From positions 7,784-71,783 of the forward strand of contig DAPQ01000060.1 in the NCBI GenBank assembly GCA_002502175.1: a stretch of 64,000 nucleotides of DNA, given 5' to 3'. The DNA comes from Euryarchaeota archaeon UBA19 (lineage in GTDB: Archaea > Thermoplasmatota > Poseidoniia > Poseidoniales > Thalassarchaeaceae). Under the pieces are notes generated by a model that saw only the letters and a program-made list of their open reading frames with translations, searched no databases and had not been told where the DNA came from. This document shows positions 7,110 to 54,526 of the stretch, piece after piece (position 1 is the stretch's first letter; each line of letters begins with the position of its first letter). A program made the translations under genes and the position numbers.

Positions 7110-7120
7110 TTTTTTTCACT
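7110..7120 (+). terminator. oligo-T tract directly after the endA stop (archaeal intrinsic terminator-like)
   Basis: The sequence 'tga ttttttt cac' lies immediately after the stop codon at 7107-7109. Confidence 0.3.
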
Positions 7121-7190
7121 TTTACTCGCTATAATATACCCCCCTGCCTACAAAAAGAAGGTTAGGCGATTTGATCCGCCAAGAAAGCCC

Positions 7191-7448
7191 ATGGGTCGAA
7201 CAGTTGCAACTTGGAGGATGAGAGGGGAAGAAAGAATAGAGGGGTGGAAGCAGTTTCGTAGAACTTTGAGACCGCAAGAACGTTCGGCTTACGATTCGAT
7301 GGTTAATGCCGCGAGAAACAGAGCGGCGGCTTGTGGAATGATACCCACGGTCGACCCTATGGAACCAATATTTCTAGCGATGTTAGTCGAAGCGTACGAG
7401 AGAATCTCAAAAATCGAAGACGAAATTGAGAGGTTGAGGAATGGATGA
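7191..7448 (+). CDS. small hypothetical protein; start of polB overlaps its end by 8 nt
   Basis: 85-aa ORF preceded by an AT-rich 'ctataatata' TATA-like element about 55 nt upstream. Charged helical C-terminus. No recognisable domain. Confidence 0.25.
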   Translation: MGRTVATWRMRGEERIEGWKQFRRTLRPQERSAYDSMVNAARNRAAACGMIPTVDPMEPIFLAMLVEAYERISKIEDEIERLRNG

Positions 7449-9828
7449 AGGATGGATCCTTGATTGTCATCTAGATATCAAAACCGAATGTATGAGTTTA
7501 TGGATAAAGAAAGACGATGGAGAAGTTCAACAAATCCTAATGCCATGGTCATTCACGATACATGTTCATGGAGAATCGCACAGATTAGATGAACTAGGTA
7601 GAGCCCTTTCTAGACCTGAATACCAACGTCCATTTGGAGCACTATCATTGAGAAGGGAAAGGCATCGTACCTCACATGAATCACAAAAACAGGTGGAAGT
7701 CCTGGCAGTTAATTTACAGAAGCCATCGAAGATAAGAAAAATTGCAGAGATGATTGATGCAAATGGTTCATGGCGAAATTTCGAGCTTTTTTCCGTTGAC
7801 CCAAAAATCACTCAGAAATTTTTGTTAGACCTCAAAACCCATCCATTTGGGAGAGTGAAGATAATTGGAAACCAAATTTTCCCCTTAGATACAAGAGACG
7901 AAGTTGATTGGCAACTTCCACCTCTTAGAATCATCGAACTCGATGTTTGTTGCCTAGATGTAAATGGTAAAAGAAAGGCTAGCGCACCAATTTCTAGTAT
8001 CACAATAGTTGACAAGGGAGTAATTAATTGTGAAAGCAAATCATTCAGTCAAACTTTGGTTGCCGACGCATATACTTGCTATGCCCATATGTTAGATGAT
8101 TTCCACAGAAAAATAGAGGAAATTGATCCCGACATTGTAATCACCCATGATGGAGACAGTGTCGACATTCCTGCATTGATTAGACTCGCCGAGAAGTCGG
8201 GAGTGAAGCTGAATATTAGTAGAAATGGTAGAGAAAGTAAACCTCGCTCTCAAGAACGTGTGGCTTGGAGCTACGGCCGACTTCTAAGAAAGGAAGCGTA
8301 CCATTCCTTAGAAGGGCGATTACACATTGATATGGGGCGCTCTTTCATAGGCAAAGAAGGTGGGATTGAGGGGTTAATGGAATTATCAAGAGCTTCGGGA
8401 TTACCAGCAGCGGACCTATCGAGATTATCACCAGGTTCAGCAATTTCAGCTATGCAAATTCGACAATCGATTGAAGATGGAGTATTGATTCCTTGGAAAA
8501 AGAATAGGCCAGAAGATATGAAAGATGCTGAACAAATAATGTTGGCTGATCGGGGTGGACTATACTTAGACCCAATTGTTGGTGTTCACCAAGGTGTTAT
8601 TGAACTAGATTTTGCGAGTTTATTCCCCAGCATAATTGCAACGAGGAACATTAGTCCTGAAACTATGAATTGTTTGTGCTGTAATCTAGATTCGGACCAT
8701 TCAAGAAAAGATGGGAGATTATCGTTGAATGTAAAAACAGCTGCTGCTGAAATTCAAAAAAGGCAAAAAAATAATGAAAATCTGAAATTAGTTGTACCCG
8801 AACTTGGATTACATGTCTGTACGAAAAGGCATGGATTCCTAGGTAGAGTGGTAGCACCTATAATTGAAAGACGGAATGTATTGAAAGAAAAAAGGCAGAA
8901 CAAAGGAGACGTTTGGGACAGAAGACAAAATGTTCTGAAGTGGATCTTGGTAACTTGTTTTGGCTATACTGGTTATCGAAATGCACGCTTTGGTAGAATA
9001 GAATGTCACGAGGCTATTTGCGCTTGGTCTCGTGAAATACTCCTGACCACTATTGAAGAAGCAAACAAAGAAGGATGGGATTGCATACACGCTATAGTAG
9101 ACGCTATTTGGATTAAAGATAGAAAGAATCGAAGCGAGGAAGAAAAACGAGATTCATACCAACGTTTGATGGTTAGAATTGAAGCATTGGTTGGCATACC
9201 TCTTGAACTAGAACATGAATATGATTGGATTGCATTCATCCCAAATAGAACTACAGGAGTTGGTGCACTCACCAAATACTATGCAAAGATAGGAGAAGAG
9301 TGGAAGGTTAGAGGGATTGAATTACGCCAGCATTCAACATGTGAATGGATAAGGCAATTACAAGAAGATATGATGGAAGATTTAGCGAATGACCCATTCG
9401 GAATTGGACCGAAAATCGCGGCTCAACGTGTTGAAGATGAAATATCTCGTATGAAGAGAGGGGAAGTACCATTGAGTCAATTGATAGTAGGTAGAAGAGT
9501 ACGATATGAAACTGGTAATCATCGTGTAATGAATCTGACAGCTGCGGCTCTTCTCCGTGCCCGAGCGCTAGAACAAATCACACCTCCTGGAAGGAAGGTT
9601 CGTTTTGCCGTAACAGGTTGGAAAAGAGAACAGCCTACCGACAGGGTGCGATTACAATCAGAAATAGACTCAGGAACGAATTCCATTTCAGGACAAAAAG
9701 GAGATGCTGAATTCTATACTCCACTAGCTGTTCGAGCCGCCACTTCGATACTATCTCCCTTCGGTTGGAATGAAGATGTTGTAACTGCAGGCTCGAAGAG
9801 GCAATCTAGTCTAGAGGTTTGGATGTGA
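7441..9828 (+). CDS. polB: family B DNA polymerase (PolB) paralog with degenerate catalytic motifs (likely inactivated)
   Basis: Motif A 'DFASLFPSII' is present. Exo II-like 'THDGDSVDIPAL' is present. Motif B reads 'KWILVTCFGYTGY' (the conserved N of KxxxNSxYG is V here). The motif C position reads 'HAIVDAIW' instead of YGDTDS. The KKRY position reads 'TKYYA'. The Exo I position reads 'IELDV'. Length of 795 aa is typical of archaeal PolB. Confidence 0.7.
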   Translation: MDEGWILDCHLDIKTECMSLWIKKDDGEVQQILMPWSFTIHVHGESHRLDELGRALSRPEYQRPFGALSLRRERHRTSHESQKQVEVLAVNLQKPSKIRKIAEMIDANGSWRNFELFSVDPKITQKFLLDLKTHPFGRVKIIGNQIFPLDTRDEVDWQLPPLRIIELDVCCLDVNGKRKASAPISSITIVDKGVINCESKSFSQTLVADAYTCYAHMLDDFHRKIEEIDPDIVITHDGDSVDIPALIRLAEKSGVKLNISRNGRESKPRSQERVAWSYGRLLRKEAYHSLEGRLHIDMGRSFIGKEGGIEGLMELSRASGLPAADLSRLSPGSAISAMQIRQSIEDGVLIPWKKNRPEDMKDAEQIMLADRGGLYLDPIVGVHQGVIELDFASLFPSIIATRNISPETMNCLCCNLDSDHSRKDGRLSLNVKTAAAEIQKRQKNNENLKLVVPELGLHVCTKRHGFLGRVVAPIIERRNVLKEKRQNKGDVWDRRQNVLKWILVTCFGYTGYRNARFGRIECHEAICAWSREILLTTIEEANKEGWDCIHAIVDAIWIKDRKNRSEEEKRDSYQRLMVRIEALVGIPLELEHEYDWIAFIPNRTTGVGALTKYYAKIGEEWKVRGIELRQHSTCEWIRQLQEDMMEDLANDPFGIGPKIAAQRVEDEISRMKRGEVPLSQLIVGRRVRYETGNHRVMNLTAAALLRARALEQITPPGRKVRFAVTGWKREQPTDRVRLQSEIDSGTNSISGQKGDAEFYTPLAVRAATSILSPFGWNEDVVTAGSKRQSSLEVWM

Positions 9829-10565
9829 CGGAATTCCAGAAGTGAGGTTTGACCAAACGGCAATTGTGCCCAAATCATTTCCCTATCAAGGGACAAAAGG
9901 TGTAATCTCTTTCTTGCCAAACCACCATTAGATTTTTTCGAGCGTGGTTCATCAATCCTAAGTATATCATCTGTAAATTGTCTCAGAATCTCGCGCATAT
10001 CCTTGCTTAACGGTGGTGATGAATTACGACTTGATGTGAGAACCACCAAGGAATTCGAATCTTTACTAATATCCCTACATCGTTGAAGTGTTGCCTTCAA
10101 CAAAGAGCGTCCCTCCGATTTCTTAAGTTGAGCATCCATAAACATCCTAGGTATTTGTGAAATCACGATTATTCTTCCCTCTATCAGTCTATTCGGTGAA
10201 TTTTTTGATCCGGCTTCATTAGACAGTCGTTGAATAATCGACGCTGTTTGGTGAGCTGTGAAACCACGACATATATGGAAATTCGACAATACTTCACGAT
10301 TTTTACAACCTCGTATTCGCAACAAAGGAAGAAGAGGGGAAGGGTCGAATGCCATCCCTCCATCAATCCAATGTACTGGTATAGATTCAGACAAATCGTT
10401 AGCAACCATTCGTAATAACGCACCTTGGAATTCCTTTCTATGTTGATCAATAAGAAGGACAGAGGGCACCTTTGGTTTTGGTAATACTAGATCTATTGCT
10501 GAATCACCCCAAGAAATACTCGTTGGCCGAGACATAGTCTGAAGGCAATACAAATCACCTATCAA
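9714..10565 (-). CDS. RadB/RecA-superfamily paralog lacking Walker A and the Walker B Asp (predicted ATPase-dead)
   Basis: Collinear with RadB: 'ISWGDSAIDLVL' (cf. TGxxxLDxLLGGG), 'VHWIDGGMAFDPSPLL' (cf. VAYVDTEGGFSPERL), 'IIVISQIPRMF' (cf. LVVVDSFTAHY), 'SLVVLTSS' (cf. VAVIVVNQ). At the P-loop position it has 'DQHRKEFQG' instead of GxxGxGKT. Confidence 0.45.
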   Translation of the reverse strand: MIGDLYCLQTMSRPTSISWGDSAIDLVLPKPKVPSVLLIDQHRKEFQGALLRMVANDLSESIPVHWIDGGMAFDPSPLLPLLRIRGCKNREVLSNFHICRGFTAHQTASIIQRLSNEAGSKNSPNRLIEGRIIVISQIPRMFMDAQLKKSEGRSLLKATLQRCRDISKDSNSLVVLTSSRNSSPPLSKDMREILRQFTDDILRIDEPRSKKSNGGLARKRLHLLSLDREMIWAQLPFGQTSLLEFRHIQTSRLDCLFEPAVTTSSFQPKGDSIEVAARTASGV

Positions 10566-10612
10566 TCAGCCAACGAGAGAGAGGTATTGAGTCGGTTAGT
10601 GAAAGTAATGCT

Positions 10613-49540: not shown

Positions 49541-49858
49541 TCAGAGGTTTGTACTCAGAGTTAGAAGGTCTGACTGACCTGGGTCTATAACACATAATGC
49601 ACTAACTGGGAATGGTTTGGCACAAGCCGCACCCAACTGCCTGTTTACCATCGTAACTCTATGAACTGGGATATCAGGATGGCTAGTTGTCAAACTGGAT
49701 ATGTAATCCTCCGGACAGTTTGCCGCCACCAATACCAATCTGGCATCTCCTTTATTGCATGCACTTGTCGTTTGGCGTTGGCCAAATAGTACATTTCCTG
49801 TGCTAATTCCTTGTTTTAGTTGTCTTGCTAGATCCATTAGAATTCCTCCTTCAAGCAT
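49541..49858 (-). CDS. rpl30e: 50S ribosomal protein L30e
   Basis: '[13 protein letters not shown]'-type motif ('[16 protein letters not shown]'). Position downstream of rpoA'' is canonical. Confidence 0.8.
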
Positions 49859-51431
49859 CTGCCTCTTCAGGTATGTAAAACAAATCTACACTACCTGTTC
49901 CAAGGGCTACTGGTTGACCAACGATAATATTCTCAGTTACACCTCTTAGGTGGTCTCTTTCACCAATTACACCAGCACGAAGTAAGTGGTTAACAGAGAC
50001 TTCGAACGCTGATCTTGCTAGAATACTGTGTTTCGTACCGCTAACTCCGTGTCGTCCAATCGCACGAACTTCACCTTCGCTAGTCATCACGTCAGCCACA
50101 GTGATTAGGTGCCTAGTGTCGACCTCCAAACCTGCCCCTTCAAGAGTATCTTTCATCTCATTGACGATTGCTTGCCTTGCCGCTTCAACTCCTAGATATT
50201 GGTAAATTTCATTGATATTGTTTGTGTAAGTTCTGCCTCTGTCTACACCTGCAAATTCACTGACCTTTGCTAGATTTGAGCCAATTGTGGCGATGTAATA
50301 CTCGCCGGTATCCTTGTTTGGACCCTGAACATTTGCTCGAATAATATCTGGCAATCCCTTTAATCTAAGTTTCTTGACTTTGTCCTCAAGTTGCAGTAAT
50401 GCGGTGTATGTTGGAGGATCATTTGCCAATGTTGCTAGATCATCTTCTTTGGTAACTCCAGGAATTACCTTGAGGACCTTAGGCTTGTCTTCATTATCAG
50501 CCTGAATGTATAGTCGAAGAGCTCTTTGCAGTTTATCTCTAACCTCAGCACCAGTCATTTTCTTCAAACGTAGGTTTGAGGCGTTTAAATCTAAATTAAG
50601 GTGCCTTTGAGCGACATCCACATCGATGGAAGCGATGTCTCTAGTCGTAGTTGTTTCAATTGAGGCCGCAATCGCTTGAACCTTCTTTTCATTGGTTCGC
50701 AGAGGCTTACCTTTGGAATCATTCTCATCGAGATAAACAAGCATTGTCGGTGTTTTTGGCACCTTCCTTGCATCAACAATTTCGATTACTCTCGGAAGAC
50801 CTTGGGTTACGTTAACCGTAGCTACACCAGCATAGTGGAAAGTACGCATTGTCATCTGAGTCCCAGGCTCTCCAATTGATTGAGCAGTGGTTATCCCTAC
50901 AGCCTCGTGTGGATCGACTCTTGACATTTCCATGCCGGATGCGGCACAAGTTACGACCTTGCGTGCTTCCGCTGCGGTAAGTTTCTTCTTTCCTCTAGAT
51001 AGCAAGCCATTGACTAAATCATTGATTGTCTTCGGTGTAATTCGAATGTTTTCCTTTGCGGCTGCGTCTGAAAGACTGGTGAACATTGGGTTCTCAATAT
51101 CTAAATCACGGTGGATTTGACGCATCTTGTCTTCCGAGTCATATTCTTGCAGAGGAAGAACGCTCTTCTTTCTGCGTCTTGTAGCAACACGGCGACGGAT
51201 CAAAGTCTTCTCCGCTGCCTTTTCCTTTTGAGCCGCTTTGGTAGAGCCTTGAATGACTTCAGATATATTCTGTGCCATTCCAGAATCGGTGGCGCAAATT
51301 TGTGCGATTTCTCCAGCGGTAAGCACCTTCACGTCATCCCACTTGCGGTCATCTGCAAGGCGATGTGCATATTCCTCTGCGATTCCAAGATCCATCAACT
51401 TCTTTTTGGTTGCACTCTTGACTACCATCAC
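49851..51431 (-). CDS. rpoA2: DNA-directed RNA polymerase subunit A'' with ~110-aa N-terminal (HhH)2-like extension plus Arg-rich linker
   Basis: A'' core blocks '[25 protein letters not shown]', '[10 protein letters not shown]'. The N-terminus '[26 protein letters not shown]...' is paralogous to the RpoH N-terminus. Linker '[14 protein letters not shown]'. Confidence 0.85.
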
Positions 51432-54400
51432 TCATCACCTCCTAGAGCATCATCGAGAACCTTGGTGATATCAAATGGCATACCCTTTCGACTTCTAGCT
51501 GGGTCAATTCCATCTTCACCATACTCGAATTGGATAATCCTATCGGCAGTATTTCTAACTGAGCCGTTTCCATCTTCAGACACCTTGAGGTCGTCCATTG
51601 CGTTGATTAGACGGCGTTGCATATATCCTGACTTAGAGGTACGAACCGCGGTATCGACTAGGGACTCTCGTCCAGATACTGATAGCATGAAGAACTCAGT
51701 TGGCTCAAGCCCTTGCTTAAACGAAGAAGAGACGAATCCCTTTTCTTCCGCTCCTTTTACTCCACGAGGGAAGTGGGAAAGTACTCTGTCTTGGTAACCT
51801 CGCTCTAGACGCTTTCCACGGACCTTTGGTTGTCCTATCGAACCTGCCATCATCGCTAGGTTATCCATTGAACCACGAGCTCCCGATGTTGCCATGATTA
51901 CAGCAGAGTTATCCTCTCCAAGGTATGACTTAGCAACATTACCAGATTCTGCTTTAGCGGAATCTAGAATTTGCAGTATGTTCTCTTCAAGCGTCTCGAT
52001 TGGAGTTCTTCCCGGTCGAGTCTCATATCCACGTCCATTTTTGCCAAACTTTGCCAATTCTGCGTCTACTTCGTCACTAGCTCGGACGTTGATTTCAGAG
52101 ATTTCCTTAATCGCCGCGAGGGGTAAGTCTTCGTCATCGATTCCAGTAGTGAATCCAAGAGATGTACAAATTGCGATTGTCATCTTTGTCATTCTGTTTA
52201 GGAATTCAGCGCCACGGTTAGTACCGTGAGTCTGAACTACCGCATCAAGTAATCTACCATCTTCTGCACCAATTCCTCGCTTGTCGATAGTACCACTGAC
52301 AATACCAGTAGAAGTAACATTGACTTCGTCTCCACTTCTACTCGTGTAGTTTAATTTGAATCCTGCAGGGACAATTAGGCTGAGGAGATCAGCACCTCTG
52401 TAACCTACCATACCATCCTTAGTTGTGACTTCTTCTGGCATCTCTCCATCCCAGCCTACTGAACCCAATACTTCCATAGCCAGTTCCTTAGGTAGAACTC
52501 TGTCACCATGAGTTAGAAGATAAGCTCCTGAAATATGGTCATGTATTCCTCCAATAACCGAACCACCGTATCTTGGAGTAATGATGTGTTCCTGAACTCT
52601 CATCAAAATCTTCGCTTCGGCCCTTGCCTCTTCAGATTGTATGACGTGTAGATTCATTTCATCTCCGTCGAAATCAGCATTGTAGGGTGTACAATCTGCT
52701 AGATTGAATCGGAATGTCTTGCCTTGCATAACACGAATTTCGTGAACCAGCATAGACATTCTGTGAAGTGAAGGCTGCCGATTGAAGATTGCTACGTCCC
52801 CGTCGATAAGATGTCTTTCAACAATTACACCAGGTCGCGGGTTACCGTCCCTATCGTAAGTTGAAAGTCTGTCTTCAACTTCAGTTCGGTATACATTACC
52901 GTGCTCGTCTTCCACCGCAGGACTGCCACAATGAGGGCAGTACACTTCAAGGTGCTCTGGGAAATATTCGTCAGGGTTGTTCTGCTCCCATACCCATCGA
53001 TTATGGATAATTGCTCGAGGGTCGTCCTCAGCTAGTTGACGACCATTTTCGTCTTCACCTCGTAGGTTGGAAATTGTTGTGTCAAGATCTACTGACCAAA
53101 CATCCTCGAGGTCACCCAGTTCATTCCTTCGCATCTGCTTCATTAGTTCAAGCCCAGGAAGGAAGTTTGGTGCAGGGAGTACTGTGTTGAGGTCTGGCCG
53201 ATATCCATCATAGGGCTCTTCGTCGCTTCCGCAATGACAATCTGGATTCAAACAACGGAATCCAGCCCAGATGAATTTTGTCCTATCAGTGATTCTTACT
53301 CTGAAACTATCTCCTCTGATAATGTAGTTAACACCAGGATGGACATCCGGCCCACGCATAATCATCCTTCGTAATTGTTCTCGGTTCCTGCTAGTTGCAC
53401 GGATTGGAACTGTCAATTCCTTGGCTGTTTGAACTGGAACACCAACCTCGTTAATTCCAAGATTTGGATCTGGGCTGATTACAGTACGAGCACAGAAGTT
53501 AACTCGCTTTCCGGAAAGATTGCTTCGGAATCTTCCTTCCTTACCCTTGAGGCGTTGTGAAAGAGTCTTCAGAGGCCTTCCAGAGCGGTGCCTTGCTGGT
53601 GGAATACCGCTGGTCTGATTATCGAAATATGTTGTAACGTGGTATTGCAATAATTCCCAGAGATCTTCAACAATTAATTGCGGTGCTCCAGCGTCACGGT
53701 TTTCTCGTAGTCGTTGGTTGATTCTGAGAACGTCGACCAATTTGTGAGTGAGGTCATCTTCGGAGCGATCTCCGCTATCCAAAGTAATTGATGGACGTAC
53801 TGTTATTGGCGGCACTGGAAGAACCTTCATTATTGACCACTCAGGTCTACTAGAATTGCTATCCATTCCAAGGAATATCAAATGTTGGTCTGGAATCTTT
53901 TCTAGCCATTCTCGGATATCTCTTGCATTCAACTTGTGTTCCCCTTTGTCGGCTTTCTTCTCCTTGAAAGTAGAAGGCTTGTCTAGGAGAATCTTACCTT
54001 GTTCCGCGCCACAGTGCATGCAAATAGCACGCTTGGCGCTGGAACATTCCTTCTCGATTTCCTTGATGATTTTCTTGAATTCAGTGGAACCTACACCATG
54101 CTTTCGCATTACATCATGAACACGGTCACGGTAGTAATCTTGTTCAGACTTTTCTGGATCTAGAGGGTGAGTGTCTGCTGCACTGTGCAGAAGAATTTGG
54201 CTACATTCATTGCAAGTGCACTTCAGAGCCGTTTTGATTAGAGCGGTGAATCCGATGTGCATAACAGGTAGTTCAAGCGCGATATGCCCGAAATGACTCG
54301 GGCACTCGTCATGCTTATTTCCACACGTCTCACAGCGAATTCCTGGGTCAATGACTCCCATTTTTGGATCCATCAATCCTTGCTTGAACGCGTGTCCATC

Positions 54401-54526
54401 ATCCTTGTAAGTGTCTGCTGTCTTTACTTCAACTGCCGACATCTTTCGAATCTCATTTGGATCCATTAGGCTGAACTTGATCGAATCTATCCTCTTTGGG
54501 ATTTTTGCTACTCCACGGGCACTCAT
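51428..54526 (-). CDS. rpoA1: DNA-directed RNA polymerase subunit A' (with lineage-specific zinc-ribbon insertion)
   Basis: Zn sites '[17 protein letters not shown]', 'CTCNEC...CMHCG'. '[12 protein letters not shown]' active site. '[11 protein letters not shown]'. 1032 aa versus ~880 typical. Confidence 0.9.

Follow-up and report, generated by a model that had tools for sequence, protein, structure and literature searches.

The 64-kb window considered here, meaning the whole stretch of DNA that was analyzed from contig DAPQ01000060.1 of Euryarchaeota archaeon UBA19, comes from the chromosome of a Marine Group II (MGII; Poseidoniales) archaeon. The subject of this analysis is an open reading frame (ORF) in it for a family-B DNA polymerase, assigned below to group B2 (PolB2), that lies between a small upstream gene, PPB2, and a convergent gene for iRadA, a RadA-like protein (Table 1). 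Homologs of the polymerase derive from metagenome-assembled genomes (MAGs) of Poseidoniales and Thalassarchaeaceae. A preliminary description of the stretch had suspected an inactivated polymerase paralog with most of its catalytic motifs degenerate; our analysis indicates that PolB2 is probably an active damage-tolerance polymerase and not a dead enzyme.

Table 1. Features of the PolB2 locus, in window coordinates (aa, amino acids; nt, nucleotides; HMM, hidden Markov model; PIP, PCNA-interacting peptide).
Feature	Position	Strand	Basis or remark
Candidate regulatory element TTCACTTTT, with an ANTTTC-like hexamer inside	7115..7123	+	76 nt upstream of the PPB2 ATG
TATA-like CTATAATATA, possible archaeal promoter	7137..7146	+	~50 nt upstream of the PPB2 ATG; proposed from sequence
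PPB2 (arCOG07300), 85 aa, N-terminal MGRT arm, R3, R9	7191..7448	+	Alignment; PF26485-tagged homologs
PolB2 (B2-group family-B DNA polymerase), 795 aa	7441..9828	+	Pfam, HMM alignment, structure model, conservation
Exo I remnant (ELDVCCL, aa 166-172), with the Asp retained and Cys for Glu	7936..7956	+	Positions unconstrained in the family
Conserved GVLIPWKKNRPEDMK segment, then D370-R371-G-G	8479..8559	+	Candidate iRadA-binding element plus D(K/R) motif in place of YxGG
Motif A, ELDFASLFPSIIATRN, catalytic D390	8602..8649	+	Same in 119 orthologs; D390 in 127/127 distant relatives
Cys cluster C411-x-C413-C414...C460 (aa 411-460) around an MGII-specific insertion	8671..8820	+	Alignment of relatives, structure model
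Motif B, KWILVTCFGYTGYRNARFG, K500 kept, V504 for Asn	8938..8994	+	HMM alignment, ortholog conservation
Motif C, HAIVDAIW, H550, I552 for the first Asp, metal-ligand D554	9088..9111	+	119 orthologs; D554 in 127/127 distant relatives
KKRY equivalent, LTKYYA, K612-Y613 conserved	9268..9285	+	HMM alignment, ortholog conservation
Convergent overlap, 115 nt, last 38 iRadA codons antisense to PolB2 thumb and C-terminus	9714..9828	.	ORFs, homologs
PolB2 C-terminal PIP-like box QSSLEVWM	9802..9825	+	Alignment to the PCNA-binding tail of the Pfu and Deep Vent enzymes
iRadA, 273 aa from ATG 10535 (longest ORF from TTG 10565)	9714..10535	-	Homologs, AlphaFold2/Foldseek, HMM
iRadA PIP-like box QTSLLEF, aa 229-235	9831..9851	-	Just beyond the polB2 stop codon; homolog alignment
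ACTTTCAC, partial copy of the shared promoter motif	10599..10606	-	64-71 nt upstream of the iRadA ATG

The ORF exists as the preliminary description gave it, and its assignment to the family-B polymerases is borne out by matches to the Pfam families DNA_pol_B and DNA_pol_B_exo1. It aligns end to end with the Thermococcales PolB3 structures, at E ~1e-46 for the single sequence and ~1e-75 for the family profile. The AlphaFold2 (AF2) model of the protein (predicted local distance difference test score, pLDDT, 83.5; predicted template modeling score, pTM, 0.82) contains all five domains, namely the N-terminal, exonuclease, palm, fingers and thumb domains, and it can be superimposed on the KOD, 9°N and Pfu polymerases at template modeling (TM) scores of 0.70-0.75 and 18-21% identity. 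The NCBIfam models NF004418 and NF004416 score 402 and 358 bits, respectively, against 95 bits for PolB3-type models, and the ranking of models is identical for the PolBs of operons in which iRadA, PPB2 and PolB2 follow one another on the same strand. An exhaustive search of 1.84 billion representative sequences for distant relatives returned 547 clusters at E ≤ 1e-30, the best 150 of which carry the B2 signature and score 272-919 bits with PolB2, compared with ~160 bits (single sequence) for the PolB3 structures. Motif counts given below for distant relatives refer to 127 of these best 150, and those for orthologs to a mafft alignment of 119 full-length Poseidoniales sequences of 43-99% identity.

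The polymerase active site was compared with those of the Deep Vent and Pfu enzymes by HMM alignment. D390 occupies the motif A Asp position in DFASLFPSII, as had been described; V504 replaces the motif B Asn in KWILVTCFG, with K500 retained; and I552 replaces the first motif C Asp (HAIVDAIW against YIDTDG), with the second, D554, retained. The earlier hand alignment was thus essentially right, since the HMM alignment puts no canonical Asn in motif B and no first Asp in motif C. The steric-gate Tyr of motif A is Phe in this protein, motif B is further changed from Ser to Thr and from Tyr to Phe, and the KKRY position, correctly reported as altered to TKYYA, reads LTKYYA with its K-Y core still in place. 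To call most catalytic motifs degenerate was nevertheless an overstatement, because both metal-ligand Asp residues are invariant, as are R478, K482 and K500, the last three across 16 aligned sequences with 34-74% identity to the window PolB2. In ternary complexes of family-B polymerases (RB69, KOD and Pol delta), the metal ions are coordinated directly by two residues, the Asp of motif A and the second Asp of motif C. By alignment, R478, K482 and K500 correspond to R460, K464 and K487 of KOD, which contact the triphosphate.

The departures from the canonical motifs are themselves preserved. Near-invariant stretches among the orthologs include ELDFASLFPSIIATRN, KWxLVTCFGYTGYRNARFG, HAIVDxxW and LTKYxA, the H, I, V, D and W of motif C being invariant in all 119. 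Every distant relative has the Asp of motif A and the second Asp of motif C (127/127 each), and 126/127 have the motif B Lys; Val stands for the motif B Asn in 123/127, position 552 holds I, L or V in 120/127, and H550 is kept in 122/127. Shared as it is by the 119 orthologs and the 127 distant relatives, the pattern is far from a chance one, and the motif deviations are a conserved signature and not random decay. Group B2 was defined by a single Asp and a conserved His in motif C, an unconserved Exo I, an absent Exo III and a D(K/R) motif (Kazlauskas 2020, PMC7544198); the motifs of the window polymerase match this signature, and the protein is therefore assigned to PolB2.

The D(K/R) motif is represented by D370 (127/127 distant relatives) and R371 (R or K in 123/127) in the form D(R/K)GG, and is preceded by a conserved GxL[IV]PW[KR]K..PE.FK segment. 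Residues 354-373 form the sole long low-confidence loop of the PolB2 monomer model, with pLDDT <50. The region ahead of D(K/R) has been described as a Rad51-oligomerization-like element that binds iRadA, and the D(K/R) residues as contacting PPB2 (Timinskas et al. 2025, PMC11791011), the motif and its role being treated also in PMC7544198. Judged from its spacing alone, D370-R371 would be equivalent to DK253-254 of the Sulfolobus islandicus enzyme.

The exonuclease domain shows a different pattern. The Exo I motif had been reported to deviate from FDIET, and the Glu is indeed lost (C170); the Asp, in contrast, is retained as D168 within ELDVCC, and the Exo II Asp is present as D242. Among the orthologs, Exo I positions 168 and 170 and the Exo II catalytic positions take many different residues, and the two Exo I positions are highly variable in the distant relatives as well. 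At Exo III, replacement of the Asp by Glu had been proposed. F302 and E306 do stand at a YxxxD-like spacing, which makes the proposal defensible, but the substitution is not provable, as the family profile does not align this region, leaving ~43 profile positions unaligned against ~88 PolB3 residues. In the model, the region contains a helix, residues 302-319, with the family-invariant F302 and E306, so that F302xxxE306 lies in place of YxxxD. A single-sequence phmmer alignment of the Exo III region was dropped, as the family profile gives no such alignment. By these motifs, with Exo I unconserved and Exo III missing, PolB2 is predicted to be deficient in proofreading.

Conservation across the 119 orthologs follows the same division, at 0.84 in the fingers and 0.65-0.70 in the palm, and 0.52 in the exonuclease and N-terminal domains. 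Since the polymerase motifs are invariant and the exonuclease positions free, the protein combines a constrained, remodeled polymerase site with an unconstrained exonuclease site. The ratio of nonsynonymous to synonymous substitution rates (dN/dS) of PolB2 against close relatives is 0.11-0.12, with 0.07-0.13 for PPB2 and ~0.25 for iRadA, and all three genes are under purifying selection. The comparisons of PolB2 with loci L005 and L006 and of iRadA with L004 were left out of these estimates owing to indels in the ungapped comparison and to an incomplete locus. Pseudogene status was considered for PolB2 and rejected on dN/dS and window context.

The stop codon of the 85-residue upstream ORF overlaps the polB2 start by 8 nt (ATGGATGA), in agreement with the preliminary description. 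Its product begins MGRTVATWR. PPB2 proteins are characterized as helical, of ~90 residues, with an N-terminal MGRT arm and with Arg3 and Arg9 (PMC11791011). MGII PPB2 aligns without gaps across its 85 residues with the PPB2 of the same-strand operons at 30-39% identity, and M1, G2, R3 and R9 are invariant in 19 sequences, those operons included. PPB2 has no significant match to a Pfam or NCBIfam family; its homologs P0283-P0304, however, all carry the Pfam tag PF26485, so that a curated PPB2 family apparently exists. On its residue pattern, the ORF is identified as PPB2.

The convergent neighbor had been described as a dead RadB-like gene, and it is indeed a RadA/RadB-like gene without ATPase motifs that overlaps polB2 by 115 nt. 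Homologs of iRadA are 272-273 residues long, favoring the ATG start at 10535. The core of its AF2 model (residues ~10-223, pLDDT mostly 70-93) has RAD51 paralogs, DMC1 and RadA ATPase cores as its top Foldseek matches (E ~1e-11, TM 0.6-0.75); the N-terminal helical domain is missing, and the Rad51/RadA ATPase-core fold is retained. The Walker A pattern GxxGxGK[ST] occurs nowhere in the protein, and the segment that follows the first β-strand reads IDQHRKEFQG and varies among orthologs. No Pfam or NCBIfam match to Rad51 or RecA was obtained for iRadA. Searching with an HMM built from the MGII iRadAs, in turn, recovers the iRadA of the Methanomassiliicoccales and Thermoplasmata operons at 1e-10 to 1e-24.

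The 38-codon tail of iRadA runs antisense to polB2 in codon register and is open in 12/12 aligned homologs; its pLDDT is <50, and the overlap between the two genes ranges from -258 to +214 nt across MGII clades. The tail may be a non-functional passenger of an inversion, and antisense transcriptional coupling of polB2 and iRadA is possible. The PIP-like boxes of the two proteins are encoded back to back at the convergent junction. That of PolB2 stands at the exact C-terminus, in a disordered tail of the model. In the iRadA box, Q229, S231 and L232 are invariant and F235 is nearly so; it lies 38 residues from the C-terminus here, compared with 1-14 residues after QTTLDEF in the iRadAs of same-strand operons. 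Its conserved QxSLxxF pattern is like the PCNA-binding motifs that have been reported in iRadA (PMC11791011), which are frequent there without being universal, and clamp motifs are rarely found in both proteins of one PolB2 system (Timinskas et al. 2025). A regular-expression search finds PIP-like boxes in both PolB2 and iRadA at 8 MGII loci of the window's clade.

Relatives of the locus were compared at the 80 best loci among GTDB species representatives. The pairing of the PolB with the RadB-like gene, for which conservation in relatives had been suggested as a check, is conserved: PPB2, PolB2 and iRadA are linked in all 58 scorable Poseidoniales loci. These loci have PPB2 and PolB2 in tandem with iRadA convergent, the usual overlap being 4 to 214 nt and that of the window's clade 115 nt, and in 15 loci from other Thermoplasmatota the three genes follow one another on one strand as iRadA-PPB2-PolB2. 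The flanking genes are common to only the 5-7 closest loci, which indicates that the three genes travel as a unit. In loci L023 (8412-10664) and L051, ~2.2 kb with genes for a ceramidase-like protein and a CDP-alcohol phosphatidyltransferase, unrelated to DNA metabolism, separates polB2 from iRadA; the convergent pair is thus separable.

The same variation of flanking genes between MGII clades could be taken to mean that PolB2 came from an integrated virus, casposon or other mobile element, and magroviruses, the viruses of MGII, do encode family-B polymerases. Such an origin appears extremely improbable. The G+C content is uniform across the region (~0.39-0.47 in the window, mostly near 0.43), and the neighbors are housekeeping genes for archaeal RNA polymerase subunits, a tRNA-splicing endonuclease, TatC and a transhydrogenase, with a proteasome subunit also encoded in the window. 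The region lacks an integrase, a terminal protein and Cas1, virtually all MGII species representatives retrieved have the gene, its divergence keeping pace with theirs, and the magrovirus PolBs belong to another clade, near B5.

A promoter element is shared by the two transcription units. The pattern TTCAC.?TT[TC], typically TTTCACTTTCA, precedes the PPB2 ATG by ~57-76 nt in 31/39 dereplicated MGII loci and, in full, that of iRadA in 19/41, mostly by 50-71 nt; it is strand-specific and its distance is fixed. None of 237 control upstream regions from the same loci contains it (Fisher p = 6e-34 for PPB2 and 2e-18 for iRadA, values to be read with the phylogenetic relatedness of the loci in mind). 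The MGII element TTCACTTTCA contains ACTTTC, which fits ANTTTC, the Sulfolobales DNA-damage-response element to which Orc1-2 binds (Sun et al. 2018); by itself the hexamer is frequent, with 38/237 controls containing it. Boxes of the ANTTTC type stand before the same-strand PolB2 operons of other Thermoplasmatota as well; that of L078, AATAGTTTCAGTA, matches 13 nt of the Sulfolobus consensus. The MGII element further resembles the Sulfolobales damage box in lying upstream of a TATA-like box and before a module that is Orc1-2-dependent in S. islandicus. It differs in being longer, often tandem and farther from the ATG (about -60 to -75, compared with -23 to -55 in Sulfolobus), no Orc1/Cdc6 gene adjoins the MGII module, and the likeness is that of a low-information hexamer. 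A scan of the locus for bacterial sigma-70 promoters and terminators gave counts not above those of shuffled sequence, its consensus being bacterial and unsuited to archaea.

In 29 of the 58 MGII loci, a Y-family (IMS/DinB-type) polymerase gene adjoins iRadA divergently across a short shared intergenic region, as at L026:9303-10439 (+), L033, L038, L047 and L054; it is absent from the window's clade. The promoter element lies within the iRadA/Y-family polymerase intergenic region in most of 14 loci checked. The published associations of the PolB2 neighborhood are Orc1/Cdc6, LexA, SRAP and DUF72, and a Y-family polymerase is not listed among them (2025 PolB2 paper). We suggest, tentatively and as a somewhat doubtful extension, that Poseidoniales rewired the PolB2 mutasome by inverting iRadA, giving it its own copy of TTCACTTTCA and, in about half of the lineages, having that copy in an intergenic region shared with a divergent Y-family polymerase, and that these arrangements reflect an ancient, cross-phylum damage regulon of the Orc1/Cdc6 type over translesion polymerases. 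If so, such a regulon would act in abundant archaea of the sunlit ocean.

Taken with published work, the ORF is best read as the catalytic subunit of the known PolB2 translesion mutasome together with PPB2 and iRadA, a reading to which we give a probability of about 80%. The PolB2 of Sulfolobus (Dpo2) is reported to be an active translesion polymerase, inducible by damage and needed for targeted mutagenesis (PMC11791011, PMC7544198, PMC6061795); in the Sulfolobales it is the sole damage-induced polymerase, is Orc1-2-dependent and mainly extends mispaired termini. High-confidence models predict a PolB2-iRadA-(PPB2)3 heteropentamer (Timinskas et al. 2025). Since the 40 systems modeled in that study include the Poseidoniales pairs EHR76802/EHR76801 and MBL6742770/1, placed in group '3b (PPB2-PolB2-iRadA)', the module is already known. 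The window module resembles the type system, S. islandicus SiRe_0614-0615 (Makarova 2014; Kazlauskas 2020; Timinskas 2025), in its three proteins, the I-x-D motif C with His, the D(K/R) motif, the dead exonuclease, the MGRT arm of PPB2, an iRadA that lacks the N-terminal domain and ATPase residues and has a putative clamp-binding motif, and the group 3 order PPB2-PolB2-iRadA. It differs in that MGII PolB2, at ~795 residues, has an exonuclease domain that is structurally complete though catalytically decayed, that MGII iRadA lies on the opposite strand and overlaps polB2 by as much as ~200 nt, that the window's clade has PIP-like boxes on both PolB2 and iRadA, and that MGII PolB2 has a ~30-38-residue insertion in its Cys loop and Phe for the steric-gate Tyr.

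Several points weigh against this reading. The activity of PolB2 is extrapolated from distantly related Sulfolobales enzymes whose exonuclease domain is far more decayed; a canonical PolB could hardly function without the first Asp of motif C and the Asn of motif B; iRadA, being convergent here, is not co-transcribed with PolB2; and no Orc1/Cdc6 gene was found next to the module, whether in the window or in the MGII loci sampled, or within the L023/L051 insert. The loss of the first motif C Asp and the motif B Asn, with that of the Exo I Glu and of Exo III, is also what would be expected of a truly inactivated paralog, serving with iRadA and PPB2 as a scaffold in a structural or regulatory role, for example in replication initiation. 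Its partner iRadA is itself an inactivated ATPase, and such a role was proposed in an older comparative-genomics paper. The protein does belong to the family historically called inactivated (Rogozin 2008; Makarova 2014, PMC4104785), so that this part of the preliminary description stands. Inactivation as such does not agree with the invariance of the motifs or the low dN/dS: a scaffold needs no invariant metal-ligand Asp, triphosphate Arg/Lys or motifs A, B and C in >240 homologs while its exonuclease drifts, and activity in vitro and in vivo is known for Sulfolobus PolB2, whose motif C is likewise IxD. The inactivated reading has also been superseded, PolB2 being currently regarded as an active and error-prone translesion polymerase. 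We therefore consider an inactivated scaffold unlikely.

The polymerase complement of the organism bears on another alternative, in which PolB2 is the sole PolB and has a general role in replication or repair beside PolD, such as lagging-strand synthesis or gap filling. No further PolB and no PolD gene is present within the 64-kb window, which says nothing of the remainder of the genome; the supplements of Kazlauskas 2020 have no Poseidoniales or MGII entry, and a literature search found no statement on the polymerase complement of MGII. B2 is the only PolB in 58/628 B2-encoding genomes (PMC7544198), and the five-domain architecture and C-terminal PIP-like box recall replicative PolB3. The likeness to PolB3 (Pfu, KOD, 9°N and Deep Vent) extends to the fold, the domain order, the motif A Asp, the second motif C Asp, the triphosphate Arg/Lys and the alignment of the C-terminal PIP box. 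In contrast, PolB3 has DTD, KxxxNSxYG, YxGG and intact, proofreading Exo I-III where the window enzyme has IVD, KWILVTCFG, DRGG, DxC and no Exo III, it works without PPB2 and iRadA partners, and its identity to the window PolB2 is 18-21%. A PolB of group B4 is usual in Thermoplasmatota (Kazlauskas et al., PMC7544198), and PolD is reported in the literature from all archaea but Crenarchaeota. An exonuclease-dead enzyme with a loosened pocket would be ill-suited to bulk synthesis, and the damage-box-like promoter element and the neighboring Y-family polymerase of related loci point to damage tolerance. A general replicative role thus seems distinctly unlikely.

A mechanism for the mutasome can be modeled on the published Sulfolobus experiments and AlphaFold models. 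PPB2 and PolB2 would be co-translated through their 8-nt overlap. In PolB2, D390 and D554 are predicted to bind metal and R478, K482 and K500 to bind the triphosphate of the incoming nucleotide, in a pocket that would be remodeled by Val in place of Asn, a hydrophobic residue in place of the first motif C Asp and the conserved His550. The enzyme would then extend distorted or mismatched primer termini beyond DNA lesions. iRadA is predicted to dock on the conserved segment ahead of the D(K/R)GG loop, with one MGRT arm of a PPB2 trimer inserted between PolB2 and iRadA, and the PIP-like boxes of iRadA and of the PolB2 C-terminus may tether the complex to PCNA. The present data show the family membership, the conservation pattern, the folds, the gene linkage and purifying selection; for this organism, activity of the enzyme, assembly of the complex, binding to the clamp and induction by damage are inferred by extension from these systems. 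By literature analogy, the arrangement recalls E. coli Pol V (UmuD'2C-RecA) and eukaryotic Pol zeta, which are damage-induced, proofreading-free, multisubunit and clamp-tethered, Pol V having a RecA/Rad51-family partner and Pol zeta acting as an extender. Pol V, however, belongs to the Y family and relies on active RecA-ATP, the accessory subunits of Pol zeta are unrelated, and neither enzyme is homologous to the module except in the B-family core of Rev3.

As the PolB2 family, the three-gene module and its Poseidoniales members are already published, the finding leaves general knowledge unchanged. Its value is corrective, in that B2-type PolBs should not be annotated as inactivated from their motifs. 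Specialists may find modest use in the side results: the Y-family linkage, the convergent overlap and the paired PIP-like boxes each vary the published mutasome model in a way that can be tested, and the shared promoter element offers a handle for defining a DNA-damage regulon in the uncultured MGII archaea of UV-exposed surface waters, for which diel metatranscriptomes exist.

An additional feature of PolB2 is a cluster of cysteines, C411, C413, C414 and C460, conserved in 124, 120, 110 and 124 of the 127 distant relatives, respectively. The spacer within the cluster is 5-9 residues in most family members, compared with ~38 residues here; the MGII insertion, ~30-38 residues in length, contains a helix (431-443) in the model. 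The conservation suggests that the cluster forms a metal site or disulfides. No mention of it was found in the published accounts of PolB2 searched.

Some further observations concern the related loci and the remainder of the window. In one of the 80 loci, a stand-alone gene for an RNase T/DEDD-type 3'-5' exonuclease (L007:5102-5674, +) lies directly upstream of PPB2 on the same strand, an odd location beside a polymerase whose own exonuclease is dead. An MGII-type PolB2 (48% identity) is encoded together with a convergent iRadA and a Y-family polymerase on contig NZEQ01000045.1 (L040), which is labeled as a Verrucomicrobiales MAG and is most likely a binning contaminant. In the window itself, the homolog of RNA polymerase subunit A'' (49851-51431, -) covers, through its residues 75-469, just ~225 positions of the Rpb1 domain 5 profile, and the homolog of subunit A' (51428-54526, -) matches Rpb1 domain 2 in two stretches. 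These matches suggest sizeable lineage-specific insertions in the large subunits of the RNA polymerase.

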